Shown one piece after another: positions 16,768-25,875 of a DNA stretch of 64,000 bases; the first letter of the stretch is position 1, and each line of letters opens with the position of its first letter. This DNA is from Escherichia coli. Lineage in GTDB: Bacteria; Pseudomonadota; Gammaproteobacteria; Enterobacterales; Enterobacteriaceae. Location: the NCBI RefSeq assembly GCF_017348835.2, contig NZ_CP071375.1; one strand, given 5' to 3'. A program made the position numbers and the translations under genes. Under the pieces are notes generated by a model. That model searched no databases. It saw only the letters and a program-made list of their open reading frames with translations, and was not told the origin of the DNA.

Positions 16768-18432
16768 ATGAGTGAGGCAGAAGCCCGCCCGACTAACTTT
16801 ATCCGTCAGATCATCGATGAAGATCTGGCCAGTGGTAAGCACACCACAGTACACACCCGTTTCCCGCCGGAGCCGAATGGCTATCTGCATATTGGCCATG
16901 CGAAATCTATCTGCCTGAACTTCGGGATCGCCCAGGACTATAAAGGCCAGTGCAACCTGCGTTTCGACGACACTAACCCGGTAAAAGAAGATATCGAGTA
17001 TGTTGAGTCGATCAAAAACGACGTAGAGTGGTTAGGTTTTCACTGGTCTGGTAACGTCCGTTACTCCTCCGATTATTTTGATCAGCTTCACGCATATGCG
17101 ATCGAACTGATCAATAAAGGCCTGGCGTACGTTGATGAACTGACGCCGGAACAGATCCGCGAATACCGCGGCACCCTGACACAGCCGGGTAAAAACAGCC
17201 CGTACCGCGACCGCAGCGTTGAAGAGAACCTGGCGCTGTTCGAGAAAATGCGTACCGGCGGTTTTGAAGAAGGTAAAGCCTGCCTGCGTGCGAAAATCGA
17301 CATGGCGTCGCCATTTATCGTAATGCGCGATCCGGTGCTGTACCGCATTAAATTTGCTGAACACCACCAGACTGGCAACAAGTGGTGCATCTACCCGATG
17401 TACGACTTCACCCATTGCATCAGCGATGCGCTGGAAGGTATTACGCACTCTCTGTGTACGCTTGAGTTCCAGGACAACCGTCGCCTGTACGACTGGGTAC
17501 TGGACAACATCACCATTCCTGTTCACCCGCGCCAATACGAATTCTCGCGCCTGAATCTGGAATACACTGTGATGTCCAAGCGTAAGCTGAACCTGCTGGT
17601 GACCGACAAGCACGTTGAAGGCTGGGATGACCCGCGTATGCCGACCATTTCCGGTCTGCGTCGTCGTGGTTACACTGCGGCTTCTATTCGTGAGTTCTGC
17701 AAACGCATCGGCGTGACCAAGCAGGACAACACCATTGAGATGGCGTCGCTGGAATCCTGCATCCGTGAAGATCTCAACGAAAATGCGCCGCGCGCAATGG
17801 CGGTTATCGATCCGGTGAAACTGGTTATCGAAAACTATCAGGGCGAAGGCGAAATGGTCACCATGCCGAACCATCCGAACAAACCGGAAATGGGGAGCCG
17901 TCAGGTGCCGTTTAGCGGTGAGATTTGGATCGATCGCGCCGATTTCCGCGAAGAAGCTAACAAGCAGTACAAACGTCTGGTGCTGGGTAAAGAAGTGCGT
18001 CTGCGTAATGCTTACGTCATTAAGGCTGAACGCGTGGAGAAAGATGCCGAAGGTAATATCACCACCATCTTCTGTACTTATGACGCCGACACCTTAAGCA
18101 AGGATCCGGCAGATGGTCGTAAAGTGAAAGGCGTTATTCACTGGGTAAGCGCGGCACATGCGCTGCCGGTTGAAATCCGCCTGTACGATCGTCTGTTCAG
18201 TGTGCCGAATCCAGGCGCTGCGGATGATTTCCTGTCGGTGATTAACCAGGATTCTCTGGTCATTAAACAGGGCTTTGCTGAACCGTCTCTGAAAGATGCG
18301 GTGGCAGGTAAAGCATTCCAGTTTGAGCGTGAAGGTTACTTCTGCCTCGATAGCCGCCATTCTACGGCGGAAAAACCGGTATTTAACCGCACCGTTGGGC
18401 TGCGTGATACCTGGGCGAAAGTAGGCGAGTAA
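16768..18432 (+). CDS. glnS: glutaminyl-tRNA synthetase
   Basis: 554-aa class I aaRS with HIGH (HIGHAKS) and KMSKS-like (VMSKR) motifs. Confidence 0.97.
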
Positions 18433-18447
18433 TTTTAAGTTTCGCTA

Positions 18448-18610
18448 TGCCGGATGGGGCGTTTACGTCGCATCCGGCAAGGAACAGACAAACAGTTTCA
18501 AACGCTAAATTGCCTGATGCGCTACGCTTATCAGGCCTACATGATCTCTGCAATATATTGAGTTTGCGTGCTTTTGTAGGCCGGATAAGGCGTTCACGCC
18601 GCATCCGGCA
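18448..18610. repeat. BIME cluster (three REP units)
   Basis: Three REP palindromes in alternating orientation: gccggatggggcgtttacgtcgcatccggca, gcctgatgcgctacgcttatcaggcctac, gtaggccggataaggcgttcacgccgcatccggca. Confidence 0.75.
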
Positions 18611-18630
18611 AGAAATATGCAAACAATCCA

Positions 18631-18657
18631 AAACGCCGCGTTCAGCGGCGTTTTTTC
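18631..18657 (+). terminator. intrinsic terminator 3' of glnS
   Basis: Hairpin cgccgcg-ttca-gcggcg followed by a T6 run. Confidence 0.7.
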
Positions 18658-19010
18658 TGCTTTTCTTCGCGAATTAATTCCGCTTCGCAATTTATCCATA
18701 AAATAAATTTAAAATCACGAAACATAATTAAATAAAATGTAACCGCTTTCATCTTGCTGGAATTTCACGCTTTTATTCTTCTGCAAGCCTTTCAACGGCA
18801 AACTTAAGCCTTGTAACAAAAATCATCAAAATATGTGCGGTTGCTCATGTTCTTACATTCTGGTTACAGAAAGAGATTGATAATTCGCGTCGCGAAAAAT
18901 AGTCTGTTCCTGTAGTCAGCGAGACTTTTCTCAACGCTACTTTTTTAATTTTTATTTTTTTCGCTGTTCACCTTTGGTGCAGCAATTTATACGTCAAAGA
19001 GGATTAACCC

Positions 19011-20417
19011 ATGCGTACGTTTAGTGGCAAACGTAGTACGCTGGCGCTGGCTATCGCCGGTGTTACAGCAATGTCGGGCTTTATGGCAATGCCGGAGGCT
19101 CGCGCCGAAGGATTCATCGACGATTCAACCTTAACCGGCGGTATCTATTACTGGCAGCGTGAACGCGACCGTAAAGATGTTACCGACGGCGACAAATACA
19201 AAACCAACCTTTCTCACTCCACCTGGAATGCCAACCTCGATTTTCAGTCTGGTTATGCTGCTGATATTTTCGGCCTTGATATTGCCGCGTTTACGGCGAT
19301 TGAAATGGCGGAAAACGGCGACAGCTCTCACCCGAACGAAATCGCGTTTTCAAAAAGTAATAAAGCCTATGACGAAGACTGGTCCGGCGACAAAAGCGGT
19401 ATAAGCCTGTATAAAGCAGCGGCCAAATTTAAATACGGTCCGGTTTGGGCGAGGGCAGGTTATATTCAGCCAACCGGTCAGACGCTGTTAGCGCCGCACT
19501 GGAGCTTTATGCCAGGTACTTATCAGGGGGCGGAAGCCGGAGCGAATTTTGATTACGGCGATGCCGGTGCGTTGAGTTTCTCCTACATGTGGACCAATGA
19601 ATACAAAGCGCCGTGGCATCTGGAAATGGATGAGTTTTATCAGAACGATAAAACCACCAAAGTTGATTATCTGCACTCCCTTGGGGCGAAATACGACTTC
19701 AAAAATAACTTCGTACTGGAAGCGGCATTTGGTCAGGCGGAAGGGTATATCGATCAATATTTTGCCAAAGCCAGCTACAAATTTGATATCGCCGGTAGCC
19801 CGTTAACCACCAGCTACCAGTTCTACGGTACCCGCGATAAAGTTGACGATCGCAGCGTCAACGACCTTTATGACGGCACCGCCTGGCTGCAAGCGTTGAC
19901 CTTTGGTTACCGGGCGGCTGACGTAGTGGATTTGCGCCTCGAAGGCACCTGGGTTAAGGCTGACGGTCAGCAGGGATACTTCCTGCAACGTATGACTCCA
20001 ACCTACGCTTCCTCGAACGGTCGCCTGGATATCTGGTGGGACAACCGTTCCGACTTTAACGCTAACGGCGAAAAAGCGGTTTTCTTCGGTGCGATGTATG
20101 ACCTGAAAAACTGGAATCTTCCAGGCTTCGCCATCGGCGCTTCCTACGTTTACGCATGGGATGCTAAACCTGCGACCTGGCAGAGCAATCCGGATGCGTA
20201 CTACGACAAAAACCGGACTATTGAAGAGTCTGCCTACAGCCTGGATGCGGTCTATACCATTCAGGACGGTCGCGCCAAAGGCACGATGTTCAAACTGCAC
20301 TTCACCGAATACGACAACCACTCCGACATCCCAAGCTGGGGCGGTGGTTACGGCAACATCTTCCAGGATGAGCGTGACGTGAAATTTATGGTAATCGCAC
20401 CATTCACCATCTTCTGA
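19011..20417 (+). CDS. chiP: chitooligosaccharide outer-membrane porin (chitoporin)
   Basis: 468-aa ORF with a signal peptide and C-terminal beta-barrel ending in ...APFTIF; recognised as ChiP/YbfM. Confidence 0.93.
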
Positions 20418-20466
20418 TGCCCGACGCGGCAGGTTTTGTGCCTGCCGCACGTTTGAGGAATTTGCT

Positions 20467-20793
20467 ATGAAAAAACTGATTCTCATCGCCATAATGGCAT
20501 CGGGGCTGGTGGCTTGTGCGCAATCAACCGCGCCACAGGAAGACAGCCGTCTGAAAGAGGCATACAGCGCCTGTATCAACACCGCACAAGGTTCGCCAGA
20601 AAAAATTGAAGCCTGCCAGAGCGTGTTAAACGTGCTGAAGAAAGAGAAACAACATCAGCAGTTTGCCGACCAGGAAAGTGTACGCGTACTGGATTATCAG
20701 CAGTGTCTGCGTGCAACGCAAACCGGAAATGATCAGGCGGTGAAAGCCGATTGTGATAAGGTCTGGCAGGAAATACGCAGTAATAACAAATAA
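20467..20793 (+). CDS. chiQ: lipoprotein ChiQ
   Basis: 108-aa ORF with lipobox LVAC; immediately downstream of chiP. Confidence 0.85.
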   Translation: MKKLILIAIMASGLVACAQSTAPQEDSRLKEAYSACINTAQGSPEKIEACQSVLNVLKKEKQHQQFADQESVRVLDYQQCLRATQTGNDQAVKADCDKVWQEIRSNNK

Positions 20794-20833
20794 GTGAGAG
20801 CTGTAACTCTCGCTTTTCTTATTTCCCTTGCAT

Positions 20834-20862
20834 AAAAAAGCCAACCCGCAGGTTGGCTTTTC
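20834..20862. terminator. bidirectional terminator between chiQ and fur
   Basis: Hairpin agccaacc-cgca-ggttggct flanked by an A-run and a T-run. Confidence 0.7.
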
Positions 20863-20876
20863 TCGTTCAGGCTGGC

Positions 20877-21323
20877 TTATTTGCCTTCGTGCGCATGCTC
20901 ATCTTCGCGGCAATCGCCTTCGGCACAGTGACCGTAAAGATAGAGACTGTGGTTAGTCAGGCGAATGCCATGTTTTGCGGCAATTTCACGCTGACGCGCT
21001 TCGATGGAGTCATCACTAAATTCGATTACCTTGCCGCAGTCGAGGCAGATCAGGTGATCGTGGTGATGTTGCTGTGTCAGTTCAAATACGGATTTACCGC
21101 CTTCAAAATTGTGGCGGGTGACGATACCAGCATCGTCAAACTGGTTCAGTACGCGATATACCGTAGCCAGACCAATTTCTTCACCCATATCGATCAGACG
21201 TTTGTATAAATCTTCCGCACTGACGTGATGGTTGTCCGGCTCCTGAAGAACTTCCAGGATTTTTAAACGAGGAAGCGTTACTTTCAGGCCAGCTTTCTTT
21301 AGGGCGGTATTGTTATCAGTCAT
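20877..21323 (-). CDS. fur: ferric uptake regulator
   Basis: 148-aa ORF with HHHDH and paired CxxC zinc motifs; recognised as Fur. Confidence 0.97.
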   Translation of the reverse strand: MTDNNTALKKAGLKVTLPRLKILEVLQEPDNHHVSAEDLYKRLIDMGEEIGLATVYRVLNQFDDAGIVTRHNFEGGKSVFELTQQHHHDHLICLDCGKVIEFSDDSIEARQREIAAKHGIRLTNHSLYLYGHCAEGDCREDEHAHEGK

Positions 21324-21402
21324 GCGGAATCTGTCCTGTTACTAAGCGGTTCACTTCATTAGAAGAAGTGACAGAATTTGCTCTTGAGATAATGCGTATC
21401 AT
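21316..21402 (-). CDS. uof: uof, upstream leader ORF translationally coupled to fur
   Basis: 28-codon ORF MIRIISRANSVTSSNEVNRLVTGQIPHD whose TGA overlaps fur codons 2-3 (ATGACTGA); matches the described uof leader peptide. Confidence 0.75.
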   Translation of the reverse strand: MIRIISRANSVTSSNEVNRLVTGQIPHD

Positions 21403-21611
21403 TATAGAATTGCCACGCCTAAATGAAAACCACAAGTCCCTGGCAAATATTGTTAATAAAAACGTGGCACAGCTTACATTTACAACAGCAAGGCCACTTG
21501 AACACCGGGACATTGTACAGGTACAACAGCAAAAGTTACAAATTTGTAGCAATTATTTTGATTGGCATTATCTATTAATACGGCGTAGACATGAGTCTAC
21601 GCCGCATCACA

Positions 21612-22142
21612 TCAGGCATTGAGAATTTCGTCGAGATGCAACTCTTCAGAAATCTGTTTAACCCATTTTTCTACACGTTCAGCGGTCAGTTCCGGCTGAC
21701 GGTCTTCGTCGATAGCCAGACCGACAAAGTGGTCGTCATCTGCCAGACCTTTTGATGCTTCGAAATGATAGCCCGCAGTTGGCCAGTGACCAACGATGGT
21801 TGCACCGCGCGGTTCAATGATGTCGCGGATGGTGCCCAATGCGTCGCAGAAATATTCGGCGTAATCTTCCTGGTCACCACAACCAAACAGCGCAACCAGT
21901 TTGCCATTGAAATCAATCTCTTCGAGAGTCGGGAAGAAGTCATCCCAGTCACACTGCGCTTCGCCGTAATACCAGGTTGGGATGCCCAGCAGCAGAATGT
22001 CATAAGCTTCCAGATCTTCTTTGCTGCTTTTTGCAATGTCATGGACATCGGCAACGTCTTTACCAAGCTGTTTTTGAATCATTTTTGCGATATTTTCGGT
22101 ATTACCGGTGTCGCTGCCGAAAAAGATGCCAGTGATAGCCAT
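21612..22142 (-). CDS. fldA: flavodoxin 1
   Basis: The ORF track gives 215 aa; the conserved flavodoxin N-terminus [16 protein letters not shown] starts at ATG 22142 (176 aa). Confidence 0.95.
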
Positions 22143-22281
22143 GAGTGAAATAACCTCTTGAAACTTATTGAAATGGGGGTGGAAAATTGCCCACGGATAA
22201 AGGCAATCATAGCAGAACAGGCAGTCTTGCGGAATCAGCAAACGAGCAGGACTGCACACTGTGCTACATGAAAGTGGAAAT

Positions 22282-22575
22282 TTAAACGATGCCCTGACTA
22301 CGCAGCGCCGCCAGTTGCTGCATTAACATCTCTTCGATCAGTTCGCTACGGCTCATATTGCGCGACTCCGCCAGCTCGTTCAGCGCCTCGACAGCTTCCG
22401 CGTTCAGCTTCAGTTCGACACGCTTAAGGCCTCGTACTTTGTCGCGTTTTAGCTGGTTGCGTTTATTAATACGCAGCTGTTCATCGCGCGAAAGCGGATT
22501 AGTTTTCGGTCGTCCCGGTCGACGCTCGTGCGCGAACAGATCTAATGTCGTACGGTCCGTTTGTTCTTTGGCCAT
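22282..22575 (-). CDS. ybfE: LexA-regulated small protein YbfE
   Basis: The ORF track gives 120 aa; the recalled YbfE N-terminus [14 protein letters not shown] starts at ATG 22575 (97 aa). Confidence 0.8.
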
Positions 22576-22714
22576 GATCTTGGTGACTTCGGGGGAAACA
22601 ATCAGCCAGGCCTCTGCCCGGATGGATAGCGCGCCATAATACATCAGCGCGATGAGTCACGCCAACGCCCACGCGCGGAAAGCGACGCGGACGCTGGGTT
22701 TTTAATCAGTTGCG

Positions 22715-23479
22715 TTAATCATTGAGATAGCGACGGATAGCGCGTAATACCGCATCCGGTTTTTCAGCATGGACCCAGTGACCCGCGCCTGCAATCACAT
22801 GCGCCCGTGCCTGTGGAAATTGTGCCAGTAAATCATCACGGTACTGCTCGCTAACATAAGGAGAATTGCCGCCAGGGATAAACAGGGCAGGGTGATCCCA
22901 TGCCGGGATTTTCTCCCAACCCACAATATGCGGATACTGATCCCACAATACCGGCACGTTAAAGCGCCACTCCCCGTCAACAAAAGATTTCAACAGAAAC
23001 TGAATCACCCCTTCTTCATTAAGATGCTGGCGCATTATTGCTGCTGCTTGCTGGCGAGTTTGTGCGTCCGATTCACTGACCGCGTTGATAGCCGCGAAAA
23101 TCTCATCATGACGGCGTACGTGATAGTCGACCGGTGCGATATCGATCGCCACCAGTTTATCGATGCGATCGGGGGCCAGTGCAGTAAGTGCCATTACCGC
23201 TTTACCGCCCATGGAGTGACCGATAAATGTTGCTTTGTCGATCTGCTGTGCATCCAGAGTATCAACAAGATCCTGGGCCATCGCCGGGTAATTCATTACC
23301 GGATCTCTCGGTGAAAGACCGTGGTTACGCATATCAACCTGGATGATATTGTGATCGTTTACCAGATCGCGAGCCAGTACGCCAAGGTTGTCGAGGCTGC
23401 CAAATAGACCATGGACAAGAACGATGGGAGAATTATTGTGCTGGTTTTGTGCAGTTTGCGCGCGGATATTCAATTTCAT
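22715..23479 (-). CDS. ybfF: alpha/beta-hydrolase esterase YbfF
   Basis: 254-aa ORF with nucleophile elbow GHSMGG. Confidence 0.9.
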   Translation of the reverse strand: MKLNIRAQTAQNQHNNSPIVLVHGLFGSLDNLGVLARDLVNDHNIIQVDMRNHGLSPRDPVMNYPAMAQDLVDTLDAQQIDKATFIGHSMGGKAVMALTALAPDRIDKLVAIDIAPVDYHVRRHDEIFAAINAVSESDAQTRQQAAAIMRQHLNEEGVIQFLLKSFVDGEWRFNVPVLWDQYPHIVGWEKIPAWDHPALFIPGGNSPYVSEQYRDDLLAQFPQARAHVIAGAGHWVHAEKPDAVLRAIRRYLND

Positions 23480-23663
23480 GGCAAAGTTCTTTTTTTCGCG
23501 TTGTCGGGTTAGGGTATTATGTTGACCATTGTGCCACAGGGCTGCAACAAATAAGGTTTATTCCGAGTTTTTCTGCAAGCCAGGCTTGACGCTATCCGCT
23601 GCCGGGATTTATTCATATACTCCTGGCGACTTGTATTCAGCTAAGACACTGCACTGGATTAAG

Positions 23664-24209
23664 ATGAAAACGATTGAAGTTGATGATGAACTCTACAGCT
23701 ATATTGCCAGCCACACTAAGCATATCGGCGAGAGCGCATCCGACATTTTACGGCGTATGTTGAAATTTTCCGCCGCATCACAGCCTGCTGCTCCGGTGAC
23801 GAAAGAGGTTCGCGTTGCGTCACCTGCTATCGTCGAAGCGAAGCCGGTCAAAACGATTAAAGACAAGGTTCGCGCAATGCGTGAACTTCTGCTTTCGGAC
23901 GAATACGCAGAGCAAAAGCGAGCGGTCAATCGCTTTATGCTGCTGTTGTCTACACTATATTCTCTTGACGCCCAGGCGTTTGCCGAAGCAACGGAATCGT
24001 TGCACGGTCGTACACGCGTTTACTTTGCGGCAGATGAACAAACGCTGCTGAAAAATGGTAATCAGACCAAGCCGAAACATGTGCCAGGCACGCCGTATTG
24101 GGTGATCACCAACACCAACACCGGCCGTAAATGCAGCATGATCGAACACATCATGCAGTCGATGCAATTCCCGGCGGAATTGATTGAGAAGGTTTGCGGA
24201 ACTATCTAA
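23664..24209 (+). CDS. seqA: replication-initiation negative regulator SeqA
   Basis: The ORF track gives 226 aa; the conserved N-terminus [16 protein letters not shown] starts at ATG 23664 (181 aa). Confidence 0.95.
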
Positions 24210-24234
24210 AACGTTGCAGACAAAGGACAAAGCA

Positions 24235-25875
24235 ATGGCAATCCACAATCGTGCAGGCCAACCTGCACAACAGAGTGATTTGATTAACGTCGCCCAACTG
24301 ACGGCGCAATATTATGTACTGAAACCAGAAGCAGGGAATGCGGAGCACGCGGTGAAATTCGGTACTTCCGGTCACCGTGGCAGTGCAGCGCGCCACAGCT
24401 TTAACGAGCCGCACATTCTGGCGATCGCTCAGGCAATTGCTGAAGAACGTGCGAAAAACGGCATCACTGGCCCTTGCTATGTGGGTAAAGATACTCACGC
24501 CCTGTCCGAGCCTGCGTTCATTTCCGTACTGGAAGTGCTGGCAGCGAACGGCGTTGATGTCATTGTGCAGGAAAACAATGGCTTCACTCCAACGCCTGCC
24601 GTTTCCAATGCCATCCTGGTTCACAATAAAAAAGGTGGCCCGCTGGCAGACGGTATCGTGATTACACCGTCCCATAACCCGCCGGAAGATGGTGGTATCA
24701 AGTACAATCCGCCAAATGGTGGCCCGGCTGATACCAACGTCACCAAAGTGGTGGAAGACAGGGCCAACGCACTGCTGGCCGATGGCCTGAAAGGCGTGAA
24801 GCGTATCTCCCTCGACGAAGCGATGGCATCCGGTCATGTGAAAGAGCAGGATCTGGTGCAGCCGTTTGTGGAAGGGCTGGCCGATATCGTTGATATGGCG
24901 GCGATTCAGAAAGCGGGCCTGACGCTTGGCGTTGATCCGCTGGGCGGTTCCGGTATCGAATACTGGAAGCGTATTGGCGAGTATTACAACCTCAACCTGA
25001 CTATCGTTAACGATCAGGTCGATCAAACCTTCCGCTTTATGCACCTTGATAAAGACGGCGCGATCCGTATGGACTGCTCCTCTGAGTGTGCAATGGCAGG
25101 CCTCCTGGCACTGCGTGATAAGTTCGATCTGGCGTTTGCTAACGACCCGGATTATGACCGTCACGGTATCGTCACTCCGGCAGGTTTGATGAATCCGAAC
25201 CACTACCTGGCGGTGGCGATCAATTACCTGTTCCAGCATCGTCCGCAGTGGGGCAAAGATGTTGCCGTCGGTAAAACGCTGGTTTCATCTGCGATGATCG
25301 ACCGTGTGGTCAATGACTTGGGTCGTAAACTGGTAGAAGTCCCGGTAGGTTTCAAATGGTTTGTTGATGGCCTGTTCGACGGCAGCTTCGGCTTTGGCGG
25401 CGAAGAGAGCGCAGGGGCTTCCTTCCTGCGTTTCGACGGTACGCCGTGGTCCACCGATAAAGACGGCATCATTATGTGTCTGCTGGCGGCGGAAATCACC
25501 GCTGTCACCGGTAAGAACCCGCAGGAACACTACAACGAACTGGCAAAACGCTTTGGTGCGCCGAGCTACAACCGTTTGCAGGCAGCTGCGACTTCCGCAC
25601 AAAAAGCGGCGCTGTCTAAGCTGTCTCCGGAAATGGTGAGCGCCAGCACCCTGGCAGGTGACCCGATCACCGCGCGCCTGACTGCTGCTCCGGGCAACGG
25701 TGCTTCTATTGGCGGTCTGAAAGTGATGACTGACAACGGCTGGTTCGCCGCGCGTCCGTCAGGCACGGAAGACGCATATAAGATCTACTGCGAAAGCTTC
25801 CTCGGTGAAGAACATCGTAAGCAGATTGAGAAAGAAGCGGTTGAGATTGTTAGCGAAGTTCTGAAAAACGCGTAA
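24235..25875 (+). CDS. pgm: phosphoglucomutase
   Basis: 546 aa from ATG 24235 ([13 protein letters not shown]); phosphoserine loop TPSHNP. Confidence 0.95.

Follow-up and report, generated by a model that had tools for sequence, protein, structure and literature searches.

Shared bases of the uof leader and the Fur operator upstream of fur in Escherichia coli

How is the synthesis of Fur, the master iron regulator, controlled by the short stretch of DNA in front of its gene, and which fur mRNAs do the different control elements reach? The locus sets the amount of Fur by a closed loop: Fur represses ryhB and its own promoter, and RyhB in turn represses Fur synthesis. All of these steps are established. 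The initial annotation of the window, by which is meant the whole 64,000-nucleotide stretch of E. coli DNA that was analyzed, pointed to a 28-codon leader open reading frame (ORF), uof, running into the start of fur. It also pointed to a Fur-box-like sequence at the uof start codon, and asked whether this was a real operator or a coincidental AT-rich match. The account that fits best, and one we hold with high confidence, is that this is the known E. coli fldA-uof-fur locus with two interleaved control elements, a Fur operator and the uof leader. Both are already known in E. coli. What the present analysis adds is 3-fold. (i) Promoter, operator, and uof start codon overlap, with a consequence for which mRNAs carry uof. 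(ii) Mutants of that start codon must be read with caution. (iii) In the body of the leader it is an RNA hairpin, not the reading frame, that is conserved.

The fldA-uof-fur locus

In RefSeq, the minus strand carries ybfE, fldA, uof, and fur, in that order, and chiQ and chiP are convergent with them. The fur coding sequence (20877..21323, minus strand) specifies 148 amino acids and scores 309 bits against NCBIfam NF006999, while fldA, encoding flavodoxin 1, lies upstream of uof-fur (21612..22142, minus strand). Of 5426 complete E. coli genomes, 5424 contain a 1.5-kb query taken around uof-fur, and strain PE164 matches it with 100% identity. Compared with K-12 MG1655, there are 5 differences over the 800 bases that comprise fur, uof, and the fldA-uof spacer. 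None falls in uof or the Fur operator, and the leader region differs only at 21487, upstream of uof.

The uof ORF (MIRIISRANSVTSSNEVNRLVTGQIPHD; 21316..21402, minus strand) emerged from ORF extraction, and RefSeq marks this very interval as "uof: fur leader peptide"; what the initial annotation described holds at its stated coordinates. Its ATG is at 21402..21400 and its TGA at 21318..21316, the fur ATG being at 21323..21321, all on the minus strand. The uof TGA thus overlaps fur codons 2 and 3 within the junction ATGACTGA (21316..21323, minus strand; read C-ATGACTGA). The same 8-mer contains a second TGA (A-TGA) in the other non-fur frame, and it is kept in 78 of 81 Enterobacterales loci.

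Is this the uof described in K-12? It lies directly upstream of fur in the order fldA-uof-fur, with its stop overlapping the fur start region, and its DNA is 100% identical to K-12 b4637 (710639..710725), annotated as "RyhB-regulated fur leader peptide." The peptide is that of UniProt LPFUR_ECOLI, its exact sequence is publicly named "fur leader peptide," and it matches the NCBIfam equivalog NF011344, "fur leader peptide," over its full length (residues 1-28; 85.2 bits against a cut-off of 71, E 1.8e-24). Alignment with the characterized uof-fur region, which the initial annotation had proposed as a check, gave identity to K-12 in both uof and the junction with fur. The K-12 uof of Vecerek, Moll and Blasi (2007, EMBO J 26:965) agrees with it in all 28 codons, in the ATGACTGA overlap, and in having UCA as codon 6. 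There is no difference, and the window simply carries this element in a further E. coli strain.

Transcription of fur can also come from fldA, as a cotranscript (PMC7867234, PMC12683245). Eight nucleotides past the fldA stop lies a strong 10-bp hairpin, CGGCGTAGAC-tcat-GTCTACGCCG (21581-21604, minus strand). No T-run follows it, and it is not called an intrinsic terminator. It could be a leaky terminator or a stabilizer, either being compatible with fldA-fur cotranscription. An Rfam search of 18000..25000 at E values up to 1 returned no family over the fur leader. In the same search, 18448-18688, upstream of chiP, gave sub-threshold matches to naRNA4 and other REP-derived small RNA (sRNA) families, the best at 43.5 bits against a gathering score of 59.5; these look like REP-type repeats.

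Promoter, operator, and the mRNAs that carry uof

A consensus promoter scan gave TTTTCA-17 bp-TATAAT (21429..21401, minus strand; 10 of 12 matches) as the best promoter-like site of the region. This proximal fur promoter combines a -35 hexamer TTTTCA (21424..21429, minus strand) with a perfect -10 hexamer TATAAT (21401..21406, minus strand). TATAATG is present in 73 of 81 loci (80 Enterobacterales fur loci plus the window), and 55 of these 73 have TTTTCA at the equal spacing of 17 bp. In three taxa (L055, L057, and L061), a 21-nucleotide insertion separates the conserved -35 region from TATAAT, so that the proximal promoter there must use a different -35.

One feature escaped the initial annotation: the uof ATG sits within the perfect -10 hexamer (TATAAT|G), which ends in the A and T of this start codon; the G that follows is position 7 of the Fur box. 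Judged by the position of the -10, the transcription start zone of the proximal promoter would be 21393..21397 (minus strand), inside uof and downstream of the AUG. Proximal transcripts should therefore begin inside uof and lack its start codon, and only transcripts from upstream promoters or from fldA would be able to translate uof. This dual-mRNA reading agrees with published northern blots, on which two species are resolved, uof-fur mRNA made from Puof and a shorter fur mRNA whose promoter, Pfur, is "located within the uof ORF" (PMC6191717). Likewise, start sites +1fur-a and +1fur-b have been placed within uof, with a separate +1uof upstream (PMC7867234). The existence of a Puof upstream of uof is reported by both studies (PMC6191717, PMC7867234). 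In the window, the promoter scan offers TTGTAA-18-TACAAT (21512..21541, minus strand; 9 of 12 matches) as a candidate, which is plausibly, and likely, Puof. Just upstream of the candidate -35 is a second, weak Fur-box-like 19-mer, GATAATGCCAATCAAAATA (21554-21572, minus strand; 14/19). It may be a chance match, because other matches with 5 mismatches exist in the window.

What of the Fur box itself? The string given in the initial annotation, gataatgcgtatcattat, is what 21388..21405 spells on the plus strand. The 19-mer that fits best, TATAATGATACGCATTATC (21388..21406), is read from the minus strand and matches the consensus GATAATGATAATCATTATC at 16 of 19 positions, against 15 of 19 on the plus strand. 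One rival reading makes the match a coincidental product of an AT-rich promoter, bound by no Fur, and 6 of the 16 matching positions do belong to TATAAT, which is required anyway. However, TATAATGATACGCATTATC is the sole site with 3 or fewer mismatches in the 64-kb window, where 0.01 would be expected from 100 dinucleotide shuffles. Because the left end of the box is the perfect -10 hexamer, the right-hand 12 nucleotides outside it, ATACGCATTATC, were scored separately; they have 2 mismatches, and only 4 of the roughly 128,000 12-mers in the window are that good. Conservation also extends past the promoter. Among 63 unique Enterobacteriaceae leaders, TATAATGA.ACGCATTA is at least 90% conserved, and this includes the bases GA.ACGCATTA downstream of the -10, which a promoter alone does not need. 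When the box is anchored on TATAATG, 55 of 73 loci show no more than 6 mismatches, and 27 of the 73 no more than 4.

Published work bears on the same choice. One study, citing de Lorenzo 1988, Zheng 1999, and EcoCyc, places a Fur box over the -10 of Pfur-a and describes fur as mildly autoregulated (PMC7867234). With iron present, Fur+ cells contain 3.8-fold less uof RNA than Fur- cells (log2FC -1.92; PMC10219339 Table S2). On the side of coincidence are the description of autoregulation as weak and one reporter study in which EcPfur::lacZ showed no effect of iron in the wild type (PMC7867234, section 2.7). Taken together, a match that exceeds chance, overlaps the core promoter, and is conserved in orthologues supports a genuine operator, and coincidence is very improbable; the question raised in the initial annotation thus comes down on the operator side. 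The geometry is that of the E. coli fur operator (de Lorenzo et al. 1988, Eur J Biochem 173:537) and of the 19-bp iron box GATAATGATAATCATTATC, with the same overlap of the -10 and start zone that is classical for occlusion. Strongly repressed promoters match better, fepA for example having a Fur box with 2 mismatches (PMC7867234), and the weaker match here fits the mild autoregulation reported for fur.

The proposed mechanism at the level of transcription is simple. The operator, at 21406..21388, covers the -10 and the expected start zone of the proximal sigma-70 promoter, and iron-loaded Fur bound there would occlude RNA polymerase, weakly repressing fur. The position of the operator comes from the present analysis, while repression, like the RyhB and MiaB steps described below, is taken from the literature. 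Operator and leader would act on different mRNAs, because the uof AUG is inside the -10 hexamer: proximal transcripts, starting within uof, could not translate it, and uof would be carried only on transcripts from an upstream promoter or fldA.

One practical consequence concerns the start-codon mutant, an experiment also suggested by the initial annotation. Since uof start codon, -10 hexamer, and operator share bases, a mutation of the start codon also damages the -10 and the operator, and such a mutant is confounded and cannot be interpreted cleanly.

Coupling of uof to fur, RyhB, and MiaB

How does translation of uof affect fur? Several articles reviewing Vecerek et al. 2007 state that fur translation is coupled to that of uof and that RyhB blocks initiation at uof (PMC7534054, PMC12683245, PMC11448259). 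In E. coli experiments summarized by two of them, uof was translated, and fur translation was lost without translation of uof (PMC7534054, PMC12683245). A ribosome terminating on uof would be handed to the weak and partly paired ribosome-binding site of fur. RyhB, produced when Fur is inactive, would block uof initiation and so lower Fur synthesis, as the literature has it. A further layer is provided by the UCA codon, which is reported to make uof decoding dependent on the iron-sulfur enzyme MiaB (PMC11448259, PMC11550727); the corresponding step here would be the MiaB-dependent decoding of the uof UCA.

Several features of the sequence are compatible with the reported coupling and MiaB mechanisms. 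The uof TCA is codon 6 (21387..21385), though it is not conserved, with Enterobacter, for example, having CCA. Predicted Shine-Dalgarno pairing is weak for both uof (-3.6 kcal/mol) and fur (-4.0 kcal/mol), about 20% of random positions reaching -4 kcal/mol. The fur Shine-Dalgarno sequence AGGA (21337..21334) is predicted to be mostly paired, with a P(unpaired) of 0.27. A further observation concerns upstream-initiated transcripts, in which the Fur-box palindrome could fold as RNA into a small hairpin, AUAAUG/CAUUAU (21389-21405, minus strand; predicted -2.1 kcal/mol), that includes the uof AUG. In a model of a Puof-like transcript, this AUG has a predicted P(unpaired) of 0.08.

Can the RyhB site be recognized? 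When the leader was scanned in windows for duplexes with the RyhB core, the best value was -18.1, compared with -18.0 ± 2.7 for shuffled leaders, which is not above controls. A whole-sequence prediction of the RyhB-leader duplex was set aside because the structure was unphysical. The published RyhB-uof duplex is indeed described as not predictable (PMC3018821). Near the uof start the scan offers only one candidate for RyhB pairing, GAGCAA (uof codons 7-9, +20..+25; 21378..21383, minus strand), which complements UUGCUC at RyhB nucleotides 42-47. This 6-bp core lies within a -12.9 kcal/mol duplex that ranked 7th, a weak signal in an overall scan that is not significant. The core includes RyhB G44 and C45, two residues reported to be essential for repression of uof (PMC6191717).

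One published result does not fit a purely uof-mediated route. RyhB reduced the short Pfur transcript, which lacks the uof AUG, and not the uof-fur transcript (PMC6191717). As proximal transcripts are without this codon, coupling through uof would apply only to transcripts from upstream promoters or fldA. Limiting uof-dependent control to the upstream-starting fur mRNAs matters for the partly conflicting published data on RyhB.

Two other leaders resemble uof in one respect. At thrL and ivbL, initiation at a short upstream ORF is likewise blocked by an sRNA (GcvB), with the result that the gene downstream is expressed less (PMC7534054). The thrL and ivbL leaders act by transcription attenuation. 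Unlike them, uof has no terminator, its internal hairpin (described below) lacking the U-tract that would make it one, and it is thought to rely on termination-reinitiation coupling at the overlapping stop and start.

Reading frame or RNA structure?

Is the uof frame itself under selection? The outcome of the ORF was traced from the ATG of TATAATG in 73 loci. It ends at the +5 TGA of ATGACTGA, as in E. coli, in 37; at the +1 TGA (A-TGA) in the other frame in 7; and prematurely in 24. In 4 it is in frame with fur without a stop, and in 1 it runs into fur. Stop-start overlap is thus common, not universal. The early-stop group includes Salmonella, Klebsiella oxytoca, and Raoultella. In Salmonella (L026 and L084-L088, an arizonae representative and five further assemblies with the same 150-amino-acid Fur), a 16-codon ORF, MIRIILSAISATSLMK, spans about -78 to -30 from the fur ATG. 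Its stop, 30 nucleotides before fur, falls inside the 3' arm of the hairpin described below, and there is no stop-start overlap. The early stop arises because the hairpin loop is 1 nucleotide shorter, which shifts the frame.

Why, then, does the overlap occur so often? Fur begins Met-Thr-Asp (ATG ACT GAY), and this alone puts a TGA in either non-fur frame where fur starts. Selection on fur codon 2 for the sake of the uof stop was considered and rejected, as ACT is present in 78 of 81 loci and neighboring synonymous sites are equally conserved. These observations raise the thought that the uof ORF is largely a by-product, its ATG supplied by TATAAT-G and its stop by Met-Thr-Asp. Selection would then maintain promoter, operator, and a structured 5' untranslated region, and uof translation would be minor outside Escherichia and its close relatives. 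Such an origin would accord with an ORF that reaches the fur start in just 44 of the 73 TATAATG leaders, given the 24 early stops and 4 in-frame cases, and with leader lengths that are not confined to one frame (37, 19, and 9 of 65 unique leaders in the three classes modulo 3). However, 49 of 73 loci keep the ATG frame open as far as fur, compared with 31 and 1 for the two remaining frames, and the ATG frame survives 3-nucleotide indels (79, 82, and 85 nucleotides) in several diverged genera.

Codon-position bias is likewise absent among 22 unique 28-codon versions of uof, where variability at the three positions is 0.42, 0.33, and 0.45. Equal variability implies that the peptide is not under amino-acid selection. 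This too would suit a by-product, yet an unconserved peptide is normal, and expected, for a leader ORF that acts through its translation and not its product. The poor uof Shine-Dalgarno, the predicted pairing of the AUG, and the proximal transcripts that lack it (PMC6191717) can be added on the side of a by-product. Against it are the reviews cited above, which report translation of uof, the dependence of fur on it, and the action of RyhB at its initiation (PMC7534054, PMC12683245). On balance, we regard a by-product as improbable, if less so than a coincidental Fur box, and favor the interleaved Fur operator and uof leader. Counted against this preferred account are the RyhB scan at shuffle level, the published effect of RyhB on the short Pfur transcript, the lack of conservation of the overlapping ORF in Salmonella, Klebsiella, and Raoultella, the missing codon bias, and the poor uof Shine-Dalgarno.

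What, if not the frame, is conserved in the body of the leader? Within uof lies an RNA hairpin, UCACUUC-uucuaau-GAAGUGA (21351..21371, minus strand; predicted -8.5 kcal/mol), whose structure is conserved. It is found at the same position in all 48 Enterobacteriaceae leaders by an alignment-free fold, with a mean z of -1.85 against shuffles. Its 3' arm ends 2-4 nucleotides ahead of a conserved block, placing it in the variable middle of the leader. Other genera have different stems there: ACUUCC/GGAAGU, GCUCC/GGAGC, CGCUCA/UGAGCG, GCCC/GGGC, and GCUUCG/CGGAGC. That complementarity is kept while the sequence changes implies that this is not a protein-binding palindrome. Both the hairpin and the conserved block that follows persist even where the uof frame is broken, another point on the side of a by-product.

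Two alignments were used to count pairing. In a MAFFT alignment of 29 close leaders, 89.7% of cells were paired, compared with 34-50% when partners were slid, and in a covariance-model alignment of 63 leaders, 85.4% were paired, compared with 26-44%. Seven of 8 pairs have changed on both sides (for example, A-U in 36 and G-C in 13; U-A in 29 and C-G in 12), and the 43 doubly changed cells were reached in 0 of 500 shuffles. As a covariance-model alignment leans towards structure, the control with slid partners and the alignment-free fold give the fairer test. The E. coli leader folded alone was no more stable than its shuffles (z -0.5). RNAalifold on the plain MAFFT alignment returned nothing but an invariant 3-bp GGA/UCC stem; the hairpin escaped it, since indels in loop length misalign the arms. 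A long-range pairing, UCUGUC/GACAGA, over the fur Shine-Dalgarno was paired in 70% of cells, with compensatory changes only in the Pluralibacter group. Structure mapping was performed by Vecerek et al., according to a later article (PMC3018821), and the hairpin at 21351..21371 may already be in their structure model.

The block that follows is a near-invariant stretch of 30 nucleotides before the fur AUG (..GAAYCGYTTAGYAACAGGACAGATTCCGC; 21324..21353, minus strand), which contains the Shine-Dalgarno AGGA and the triplets AGC-AAC-AGG. Most of its columns are invariant or at least 90% conserved among the 48 Enterobacteriaceae leaders, a degree of conservation far beyond what a Shine-Dalgarno requires. 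The three A-R-N triplets (AGC AAC AGG) over the fur Shine-Dalgarno bear some resemblance to an Hfq distal-face motif. One tentative proposal, which we think possible and rather less than even in its chances, is that the conserved part of the leader, covarying hairpin plus 30-nucleotide block, is an RNA module constituting an undescribed cis-regulatory element. Coupling through uof would then be a lineage-specific overlay on upstream transcripts. Such a module could, for example, be a site of docking or protection involving Hfq, RyhB, or RNase E. It could act on the short Pfur transcript, which is abundant and has no uof AUG, yet is the species that RyhB was seen to lower.

A last observation concerns the four loci without a stop. 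In L055, L056, L058, and L061 (Enterobacter sp. R1, Buttiauxella, and Dryocola), the ATG of TATAATG is in frame with fur, and upstream-initiated transcripts there could give rise to a Fur protein with 22-23 extra N-terminal residues.
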